Shown piece by piece: positions 29,726-39,753 of a stretch of DNA of 64,000 nt. The stretch is from contig CAVRAO010000012.1 of NCBI GenBank assembly GCA_963719035.1, positions 128,001 to 192,000 of the forward strand, given 5' to 3'. The DNA is from Methanobacteriota archaeon. Its GTDB lineage: Archaea > Halobacteriota > Bog-38 > Methanoflorentales > Methanoflorentaceae. A program made the translations under genes and the position numbers. How positions within the stretch are numbered: position 1 is the first letter of the stretch; each line of letters starts with the position of its first letter. Below the pieces are notes generated by a model. The model did no database searches. It was not told where the DNA came from and was given only the letters and a program-made list of their open reading frames with translations.

Positions 29726-29885
29726 TATATCCCCCTTACTATTTTTATCATATAAATTATATTGACGATATAAATACGTTTTCAAATTATTTCTTCGATT
29801 TTCGGTCAAAAATGCCTTATTTTAATTATAGGATAACATCTATATTATCTTTAATATAAACTGGTGCACGCGCGCGTCAAAAGCC

Positions 29886-29892
29886 TTTTATA
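29886..29892 (+). promoter_or_regulatory. TATA box of the tRNA-Met transcript
   Basis: Purine-rich BRE followed by TTTTATA, about 60 nt upstream of the tRNA. Confidence 0.6.
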
Positions 29893-29952
29893 GAGCGCTC
29901 GTAATAGCGGGAGTGTCTGAAGGGGCTGCTTAGCCTCTTGCAGCACCTCGCA

Positions 29953-30083
29953 GCCGGGGTGGCCTAGTAAGTTGTTGCAGACGTAGGCAATGATCTAGAT
30001 GGCTAAGGTGTCAGACTCATAGGGTAATCTAACTCGACACCTGAGATATCTGAAGAGCGCGGGTTCAACTCCCGCCCCCGGCA
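29953..30083 (+). tRNA. Elongator tRNA-Met(CAT) with two introns (29970-30000 at 17/18; 30022-30047 at 37/38)
   Basis: Acceptor GCCGGGG/CCCCGGC+A, anticodon arm TCAGA-CTCATA|A-TCTGA, T arm GCGGG-TTCAACT-CCCGC; both introns form BHB motifs. Confidence 0.92.
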
Positions 30084-30187
30084 TGCTCTATTCTTTGAGA
30101 ATTAACTATATATCTCTGATTTTTTTAGATATGACTATTAAGTTTTATGAAGATTCGAAAGCTGCAGCTTCCAGGAAAATCGAGCAA

Positions 30188-31030
30188 ATGAAAAAAAAAT
30201 TGCTTTGTATAACAATTGTTTTGCTCATCGCCGTTACGATATGTGGGACCGGTTGCACATCAAACACCTCTGGCGCTAGGGTTCAGGTCGCTGGATCTAC
30301 AACAATCCAACCTCACGCTGAGGCGTTAGCGAAAGCATTCCAAACAAACAACTCCGGTATCACGGTGTTCGTACAAGGTGGGGGCTCATCTGCCGGCGTC
30401 ACAGCGGTCGGAACAGGCACCGCAGACATCGGCATGTCATCTGCAAACCTGACAGCAAGTCAACTAGCACGGTACCCGAATCTCAAGCCAGTACCAATTG
30501 CTGTAGATGGGTTAGCCGTTATCATCAACCCACAAAATCCCGTTGATAGTCTGACGCTTAACCAAGTGCGTGATATCTTTAGTGGAAGTATCAGTAATTG
30601 GAACCAGGTTGGCGGGCCAAGTCAGCAGATAAATACAGTCAATCGTGAGATCGGGTCTGGCACTCGCGATGGCATACAGAAAATAGTGCTGAAAAATGGC
30701 AGCTTTAGTAGCAGAGGAATCACCCAGTCGTCAACAGGAGCCGTCAGATCGTTTGTTGCTGCTGATCCCAACGCAATCGGTTACATTTCATTTGCGGAAG
30801 TCGACAATAGCGTTAAGGCCTTAGGGATTGATGGCGTTGTGCCTACATACGCATCTATAGCTAATGGAACCTACCCGATCCAACGCGACCTCCTCTTTGT
30901 AATAAACGGAGACCCGAGCGGCTATGCAAAGGCCTTTCTAGATTTCACACTAAGTCCTGCAGGGCAAGCGATATTGAAGGCCAATAACGAGGTGTCGATA
31001 AACGACGTTTCAGTGAGTGGGTCCGCTTAG
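30188..31030 (+). CDS. pstS: Phosphate ABC transporter substrate-binding lipoprotein, orphan paralog
   Basis: GSTT, GGGSSAG, IAVDG, RE.GSGTR; close paralog of 42230-43093. Confidence 0.92.
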   Translation: MKKKLLCITIVLLIAVTICGTGCTSNTSGARVQVAGSTTIQPHAEALAKAFQTNNSGITVFVQGGGSSAGVTAVGTGTADIGMSSANLTASQLARYPNLKPVPIAVDGLAVIINPQNPVDSLTLNQVRDIFSGSISNWNQVGGPSQQINTVNREIGSGTRDGIQKIVLKNGSFSSRGITQSSTGAVRSFVAADPNAIGYISFAEVDNSVKALGIDGVVPTYASIANGTYPIQRDLLFVINGDPSGYAKAFLDFTLSPAGQAILKANNEVSINDVSVSGSA

Positions 31031-39374: not shown

Positions 39375-39753
39375 CTCCGTAGTTAAGAATGAGAGTGGAC
39401 CTACGTTAACGCTTACCCCATACACTATATAGTGTTCCGGAGTCTCCTTAAAAAACGCTTAAGCATTCATAACTCGATACATCCTTGTCGCAACTTGGCT
39501 TGGTTGTGACTGGCGTCCAAGGCTTCGGCCTGCCTCGGTCGATGCTTGACAAAAAGACCTTGGTCCGCCATCTTGACCAAAAAACGGTTGGGTGCGCGAT
39601 CCGGCCGTTTTTCACCCCCTTTTTTTAGGTCATATTAGCACAGATGCAGCTGCTGTAGAAAGATCATGTGGTATGGTTAAGAGCGGGGGTTACCACATGT
39701 CGTGTTAACTCAAATTGCAGTCCGCACTCTGCATTGAAGGATGTTCTAAGAAG

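Follow-up and report, generated by a model that had tools for sequence, protein, structure and literature searches.

A two-intron gene, probably for elongator tRNA-Met, with a predicted BHB intron at D-loop position 17/18 in a peat methanogen lineage

The window, a 64,000-nt stretch from the genome of a still uncultured archaeal methanogen (C12:128001-192000 in an assembly of 2.19 Mb and 13 contigs, 91% complete), carries on its + strand a tRNA(CAU) gene at 29953-30083 that two introns divide into three exons, read here base for base. One intron occupies the canonical position 37/38, while the other lies in the D-loop, between positions 17 and 18. Very probably this is a single functional gene for elongator tRNA-Met(CAU), with both introns spliced out, at 17/18 and at 37/38. 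Judged from their sequences, both inserts are archaeal protein-spliced (BHB) tRNA introns, whose excision at the bulges would give a canonical cloverleaf. The mechanism is a known one; the example is new, both in its lineage and in its site.

The features described in this and the next paragraph are all on the + strand. Exon 1 (29953..29969) holds tRNA positions 1-17, that is, the acceptor 5' strand, U8, G9, the D-stem 5' strand and A14-A17. Intron 1 (29970..30000, 31 nt) follows, within a strict BHB that spans 29960-30005; its outer helix is 29960-29963/30002-30005, its central helix 29964-29967/29995-29998 and its inner helix 29971-29978/29987-29994, with bulges at 29968-29970 and 29999-30001. 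Exon 2 (30001..30021) holds positions 18-37, comprising G18 and G19, the D-stem 3' strand, the anticodon stem 5' strand and A37, and contains the anticodon CAT at 30018-30020. Intron 2 (30022..30047, 26 nt) uses the anticodon stem as the outer helix of its BHB (30011-30015/30049-30053), with the central helix at 30016-30019/30042-30045, the inner helix at 30023-30025/30039-30041 and bulges at 30020-30022 and 30046-30048. Exon 3 (30048..30083) supplies positions 38-73, made up of the anticodon stem 3' strand, the variable loop, the T-arm, the acceptor 3' strand and the discriminator A. CCA is not encoded at its 3' end.

We wrote a BHB finder that accepts only bulges of exactly 3 nt on either side of a 4-bp central helix, requires 2 bp or more in each flanking helix, and cuts after the second base of each bulge. 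Applied to the gene, it returned exactly the two introns of the preliminary description, whose coordinates, bulges and helices are all present in the sequence. In the D-loop motif the central helix is CTAG/CTAG, the bulges are TA/A and AT/G (the slash marks the cut), the inner helix has 8 bp and the outer helix has 4 bp. That outer helix had been described as ggc/gct; these three pairs (G9-U20a, G10-C20 and C11-G19) are there, and U8-A21 adds one more. The anticodon motif has the central helix CTCA/TGAG, bulges TA/G and AT/A, an outer helix of 5 bp and an inner helix of 3 bp. Since the flanking helices h and h' are present for both introns, both motifs are of the strict hBHBh' form.

Motifs matching the D-loop one (outer helix at least 4 bp, inner helix at least 8 bp) numbered three in the 128,000 positions of both window strands, the D-loop motif included. 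This rarity, taken with the exact bounding of an insert whose excision restores the D-loop, argues that the motif is not due to chance. Weaker motifs (outer helix at least 4 bp, inner helix at least 3 bp) numbered 317 in the same positions, and because motifs of its grade are so common, the anticodon motif counts only by its exact 37/38 position. On the + strand of the window, just one other motif reaches the D-loop grade; it lies at 39617-39690, with an outer helix of 4 bp and an inner helix of 10 bp; it is intergenic, upstream of an ORF starting at 39715, and may be a chance occurrence.

The spliced cloverleaf is regular, with U8, A14, G18G19, A21, G15/C48, a 7-nt anticodon loop CUCAUAA and the T-loop TTCAACT. 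Its D-loop has the length of the uninterrupted D-loop, AGYTGGTTA, found in 10/10 orthologs from other families. When both inserts were removed by script, ARAGORN called a 74-nt tRNA-Met(cat), in keeping with the earlier expectation that splicing would restore a normal D-loop with G18G19; when the D-loop insert alone was removed, it called tRNA-Met with a 26-nt intron, i(39,26). From the unspliced gene ARAGORN at its defaults returned no tRNA, with the intron option on or off, and across the whole window it returned 0 tRNAs. Parses of the native gene that appeared at lowered stringency were spurious and were set aside. Rfam gave nothing over the window at the gathering score, and over 29850-30200 at E<=10 it gave no tRNA match, the T-arm alone scoring, as tmRNA. 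That standard finders may miss the gene is therefore true of ARAGORN and of the Rfam tRNA model. Even with intron 1 removed, just 12 of the 18 orthologs described below were called tRNA-Met by ARAGORN, which mistook the other six, with second introns of 27-29 nt, for Ser. The table of differences between tRNAscan-SE v1.3 and v2.0, in the portion of the PMC8450103 supplement cited here, has no row for this lineage. Without this gene, genomes of an abundant peat methanogen lineage seem devoid of elongator tRNA-Met, an annotation gap that the gene fills.

The tRNA inventory of the genome was taken with ARAGORN allowing introns, which gave 45 genes, and its calls were revised by reading the sequences. 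Four calls were re-assigned: 'Stop tta' is Gln(TTG), 'SeC tca' is Arg(TCG), 'Ser aga' is Thr(GGT) and 'Asp gtc i(40,13)' is Ile(GAT). An Arg call with a 330-nt intron was dropped as implausible. With the two-intron gene added, the final tally stood at 45 genes, and tRNA-Ser(CGA) was the only tRNA not found in the genome set.

Three genes in the genome have a CAU anticodon: the window gene, C2:232180 and C2:105914. Initiator tRNA is recognised by A1-U72 and by three G-C pairs at the bottom of the anticodon stem. C2:232180 has A1-U72 and GGG/CCC in the anticodon stem, and is for this reason taken as the initiator; the window gene, with G1-C72 and the anticodon stem UCAGA/UCUGA, is without initiator features. 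C2:105914 (G1-C72) shares its acceptor and D-arm with tRNA-Ile(GAU) and is 80% identical to the spliced form of that tRNA, where the other pairs compared were 59-65% identical and the window gene 64%. Because of this identity, and because the genome encodes TiaS, we assign C2:105914 to Ile2. With the initiator and Ile2 thus accounted for elsewhere in the genome, elimination makes the window gene, on its sequence features, the elongator tRNA-Met gene, distinct from tRNA-Ile2(CAU), and the elongator identity originally proposed for it stands. Its exons match tRNA(CAU) orthologs of other families, in which the 37/38 intron is present in 8/10 and the D-loop insert in 0/10; an eleventh locus in this comparison turned out to be a tRNA-Leu and was excluded. 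A 37/38 intron is a hallmark of euryarchaeal elongator tRNA-Met, and intron 2 resembles it in having the same position and nothing unusual.

The window gene is the only elongator tRNA-Met gene in its own genome and in four closed relatives. ARAGORN, Rfam and a scan for T-arm plus acceptor sequences yielded no further elongator candidates; the scan gave five matches outside the ARAGORN calls, four of them without tRNA features and the fifth the window gene. An intron-less ortholog used as a query against the own genome and the four closed relatives matched only separate pieces of the two-intron gene. The uninterrupted D-arm/anticodon-arm pattern was found in 0/12 genomes of the family, against 48/89 genomes of other families. 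A second elongator tRNA-Met, which the preliminary description had said would, together with a lack of transcription of this gene, speak against its reading, is absent from the own genome and from those four relatives. Since there is no other elongator tRNA-Met, the interrupted gene must work.

A survey of related genomes had been suggested as a check. We searched 40 relatives for orthologs and found the full 131-nt gene, with both inserts, in 13/18 genomes of the own genus (the own genome included) and in 5/6 of the sister genus; the six genomes without it are 60-78% complete. The set thus comprises 18 independent assemblies from two genera, four of them closed genomes. In an alignment of the 18 genes the exons are nearly invariant, and both introns vary in sequence and in length. 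Exon 1 varies at position 17, which is T in one ortholog; exon 2 only at position 20, which is C in 16 and T in 2; and exon 3 only at two T-loop positions. All 18 have the strict D-loop BHB in the same position, around introns of 29-33 nt.

A structure with both BHBs had 97.8% of its 680 cells paired, compared with 35-47% when the partners were slid by 1-3 columns. In the inner helix of intron 1, six of the eight pairs keep their pairing despite variation confined to one side, and in another both bases have changed. Apart from one change from G-C to G-U, variation is absent from the central and outer helices of this BHB, so covariation backs the inner helix only. Minimum free energy folding did not return the staggered BHB, the structure with both BHBs having -44.1 kcal/mol and the optimum -51.7, and RNAalifold preferred another register with a 3x3 internal loop. 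We ascribe these results to the limited ability of the energy model to handle 3-nt bulges and do not count them as evidence.

Second copies of intron 1, of intron 2 or of the intron in tRNA-Ile(GAU) (see below) were sought in the genome and none was found, so there is no sign of intron mobility. As part of the same reading, and with the same high confidence, we attribute the D-loop intron to a single gain in the ancestor of the family, with no evident function of its own.

Upstream of the gene, ~60 nt from the mature 5' end, is a BRE/TATA-like putative promoter (CAAAAGCC + TTTTATAG; 29878..29893, + strand). Its TTTTATA core is kept in 13/13 loci of the own genus, where the element is near-invariant, with single substitutions in two. 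In the sister genus the element is not conserved, and a closer TATA-like CTTTATGAG is present instead. The segment 29878-29893 is presumably the promoter in the own genus. Downstream, a T-rich trailer (TGCTCTATTCTTT; 30084..30099, + strand) is likely to act as the transcription stop; it is kept in most of the 13 own-genus loci and divergent in two.

Metatranscriptome contigs from four studies, with 90-99% likeness, cover the gene with both introns. Two of them start at 29929 and three end at 30075-30079. Spliced joints were absent from these four metatranscriptome assemblies; being built from standard libraries, they would miss a modified tRNA of 74 nt. The unspliced contigs give a weak hint of a precursor transcript, DNA carry-over being another possible source, and they are silent on splicing.

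The genome encodes the tRNA splicing endonuclease EndA at a single locus, C2:672015-672799 on the - strand, with two PF01974 repeats. Compared with a closed relative, the gene has in this assembly an insertion of 2 nt, either genuine or an assembly error, that splits it into frames of 255 aa and 131 aa. Most relatives have EndA intact in one frame, which measures 340-360 aa within the own genus and 347-352 aa within its sister genus; in two incomplete relatives the match lies in a short frame. Among solved structures the best match was the A. fulgidus alpha'2 EndA (PDB 2GJW), with an E value of 5.6e-34 over both repeats. Like that endonuclease (2GJW, 1R0V/1RLV), the family enzyme aligns in both repeats, and its catalytic repeat is colinear, the stretch between the Tyr and His regions being free of any added loop; unlike it, with modest identity, it has an insert of ~11 residues in the first repeat, which is common to other families of the phylum. 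A comparison with five other families revealed no EndA insert specific to this one. A specificity loop (L1/L2/L3, near the catalytic His or at the C terminus) is absent from the family EndA at the positions given in the cited part of PMC5829648.

Its domain layout thus makes this EndA, by comparison, one of the alpha'2 (Archaeoglobus) type, a single polypeptide with two tandem endonuclease repeats. The suggestion of an endonuclease of the strict-BHB type was borne out in that the single locus is alpha'2 and its catalytic repeat is without an insert in relatives. According to the passages cited from PMC5829648 and PMC4033280, an alpha'2 enzyme lacking a specificity loop should depend on a strict BHB, and the loop-less EndA fits the strict BHB of the D-loop. 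RtcB is encoded as well, with a score of 562 bits.

We infer cleavage and ligation from the anatomy of the gene, the conservation of its motifs, its uniqueness and the presence of EndA and RtcB. A precursor of ~170 nt or more would be transcribed from the promoter ~60 nt upstream. In this precursor the D-arm would refold, nucleotides 8-15 pairing both with nucleotides 19-21 and with the end of intron 1 on its 3' side to form the strict BHB, and the anticodon arm would form the second, usual one. The homodimeric alpha'2 EndA would cut two nucleotides into each 3-nt bulge, releasing 31 nt at 17/18 and 26 nt at 37/38, and RtcB would join the three exons. The D-arm would then regain its normal stem of 4 bp, closed by the loop AGUAGGCUA, and CCA would be added.

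Three other readings of the locus were weighed. The window gene might be spliced as described but serve as tRNA-Ile2, with an agmatidine-modified CAU, leaving C2:105914 as the Met acceptor. All three CAU genes have the same anticodon, and with TiaS present an Ile2 tRNA must exist; but it is C2:105914 that shares its acceptor and D-arm with the genome's own tRNA-Ile(GAU), at 80% identity against 64% for the window gene, and it is the window-gene exons that match the GCCGGGGTGGCCTAG... tRNA(CAU) genes of other families, 8/10 of which have the 37/38 intron. We consider such an exchange of roles very unlikely. Just as improbable, in our estimate, is a junction shifted one nucleotide to the left, with the 5' cut at 16/17 and the 3' cut likewise a base earlier, which would build the D-loop from AGU+UGGCUA and not from AGUA+GGCUA. 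The D-loop has 9 nt in either register, and the shifted product AGTTGGCTA is even closer to AGTTGGTTA of other families. However, the rule of cutting after the second base, which yields the correct 7-nt anticodon loop, leads to 17/18 when applied to the D-loop BHB. The 17/18 product is moreover identical in 15/18 orthologs, the three exceptions differing only at exon bases, whereas in the shifted register position 17 would follow the variable base of the 3' bulge, T or C.

The least credible reading, to which we give hardly any weight, is that of a decaying pseudogene or an assembly artefact from which the insert is never removed. It could appeal to the lack of spliced RNA in the metatranscriptome assemblies, to the rejection of the gene by standard finders (ARAGORN and Rfam) and to the frameshift of the EndA gene in this assembly. 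Yet the gene recurs in the 18 independent assemblies, four of them closed, with near-invariant exons and the BHB kept, no other elongator tRNA-Met is found, and EndA is intact in relatives. A functional elongator tRNA-Met gene with splicing at 17/18 and 37/38 remains by far the best explanation.

We screened 401 sampled genomes of the phylum for the interrupted tRNA-Met pattern, and it was present in 18, namely 17/23 genomes of the family plus the own genome. In 35 other families of the phylum it was seen in 0/377 genomes, about half of which are recognised by the anchors used. With one genome per species across all prokaryotes, 20 loci had the interrupted pattern, and 17 of these were the gene of this family, mostly from MAGs titled as Methanomicrobia, Methanobacteriota, Halobacteriota or Euryarchaeota archaeon, with bog, fen or peat as a frequent source. 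Among the 17 are two loci near-identical to the gene of this family yet binned as 'Acidiferrales bacterium' and 'Bathyarchaeia archaeon', which are probably mis-binned contigs. The other three are independent loci with an unrelated D-arm insert in the same tRNA, titled 'Thermoproteales', 'Thermoproteota' and 'Nanoarchaeota'. For these three non-family loci the automatic BHB choice picked wrong motifs, and their description comes from manual reading; by eye, the two Thermoproteota loci have almost the same site, the same CTAG exon strand and a 1-bp outer helix.

A search of titles and abstracts for literature on tRNA introns of this lineage, probably the Methanoflorens/'Bog-38' group, found no paper. 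The nearest known counterpart is pre-tRNA-Glu(UUC) of Methanopyrus kandleri, as presented in the cited part of PMC5829648; like the present gene, it comes from a euryarchaeal methanogen and combines a D-loop intron with a canonical 37/38 intron, both protein-spliced (here by prediction). The M. kandleri D-loop intron is at 20b/21, in a relaxed HBh' motif cut by an (alpha-beta)2 heterotetramer, whereas the one described here is at 17/18 in tRNA-Met, in a strict hBHBh' motif, and is paired with an alpha'2 enzyme. According to the same part of that source, the D-loop intron of M. kandleri tRNA-Glu was left in place by the alpha'2 enzyme of A. fulgidus. Multi-intron tRNA genes of Thermoproteales and Crenarchaeota, reported by Sugahara et al. 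2008 and summarised in sections of PMC4090602 and PMC4033280, are alike in having BHB introns at non-canonical as well as canonical positions that finders miss; they differ, as those sections describe them, in an (alpha-beta)2 EndA with a specificity loop and in many relaxed motifs.

Euryarchaea with alpha4 or alpha2 enzymes are described in the cited section of PMC4090602 as having <10% intron-containing tRNA genes, with one canonical intron each, and Table 1 of PMC4033280, the part of that review relied on here, names M. kandleri and M. thermautotrophicus as the only Euryarchaeota with multi-intron tRNAs. Measured against these review passages, the lineage is an exception to the rule that euryarchaea with alpha4 or alpha'2 enzymes have at most one canonical intron per tRNA. 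The reviews, so far as cited (PMC4090602, PMC4033280), and our genome scans uphold the view that multiple or non-canonical tRNA introns are rare in euryarchaeal lineages, but this part of the preliminary description is qualified by a D-arm intron in tRNA-Ile(GAU) that occurs in four families.

In the own genome tRNA-Ile(GAU) lies at C2:89103-89209 and is the only such gene; comparison with uninterrupted orthologs places a 32-nt intron at 23/24, within the 3' strand of its D-stem. The ARAGORN call is Asp for the gene as it stands and tRNA-Ile once the intron is excised; like the window gene, tRNA-Ile(GAU) is mis-called or missed. The interrupted tRNA-Ile pattern was found in 36/151 sampled genomes: in this family in 16/18 plus the own genome, and in families f9, f13 and f15 in 12/15, 5/7 and 2/4, respectively. 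It was found in 0 of 22 other families. Across 23 genes the central helix of its BHB had 100% of cells paired, with 3/4 pairs changed on both sides, and all five pairs of the inner helix showed compensatory changes. One G-C pair, invariant, makes up the whole outer helix and closes the 3' bulge on the exon side.

The strict BHB finder, run on 15 other canonical introns of the genome, gave the correct product in 7/15 and failed on 8; several canonical introns are 12-15 nt long and cannot form an inner helix. Because the finder also misses canonical introns, its failure is no proof of a relaxed motif, which tempers the argument from tRNA-Ile. We offer only as a tentative possibility, less probable than its opposite, that non-canonical D-arm introns are regular substrates of the alpha'2 EndAs in several methanogen families, contrary to the textbook rule of a single canonical intron; within this same doubtful reading, the tRNA-Ile motif would be of the relaxed kind reported as not processed by the A. 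fulgidus alpha'2 enzyme. If true, the substrate range of alpha'2 would be wider than believed, without any specificity loop. The Met intron, with its strict motif, and the Ile intron, with its minimal outer helix, make a ready pair of substrates for the questions of alpha'2 strictness and of intron gain.

The overall intron load of the genome is high. By reading the sequences we counted 18 introns in 17 of the 45 tRNA genes found, a proportion far above the euryarchaeal average of ~8% intron-containing tRNA genes given in the cited section of PMC4090602.
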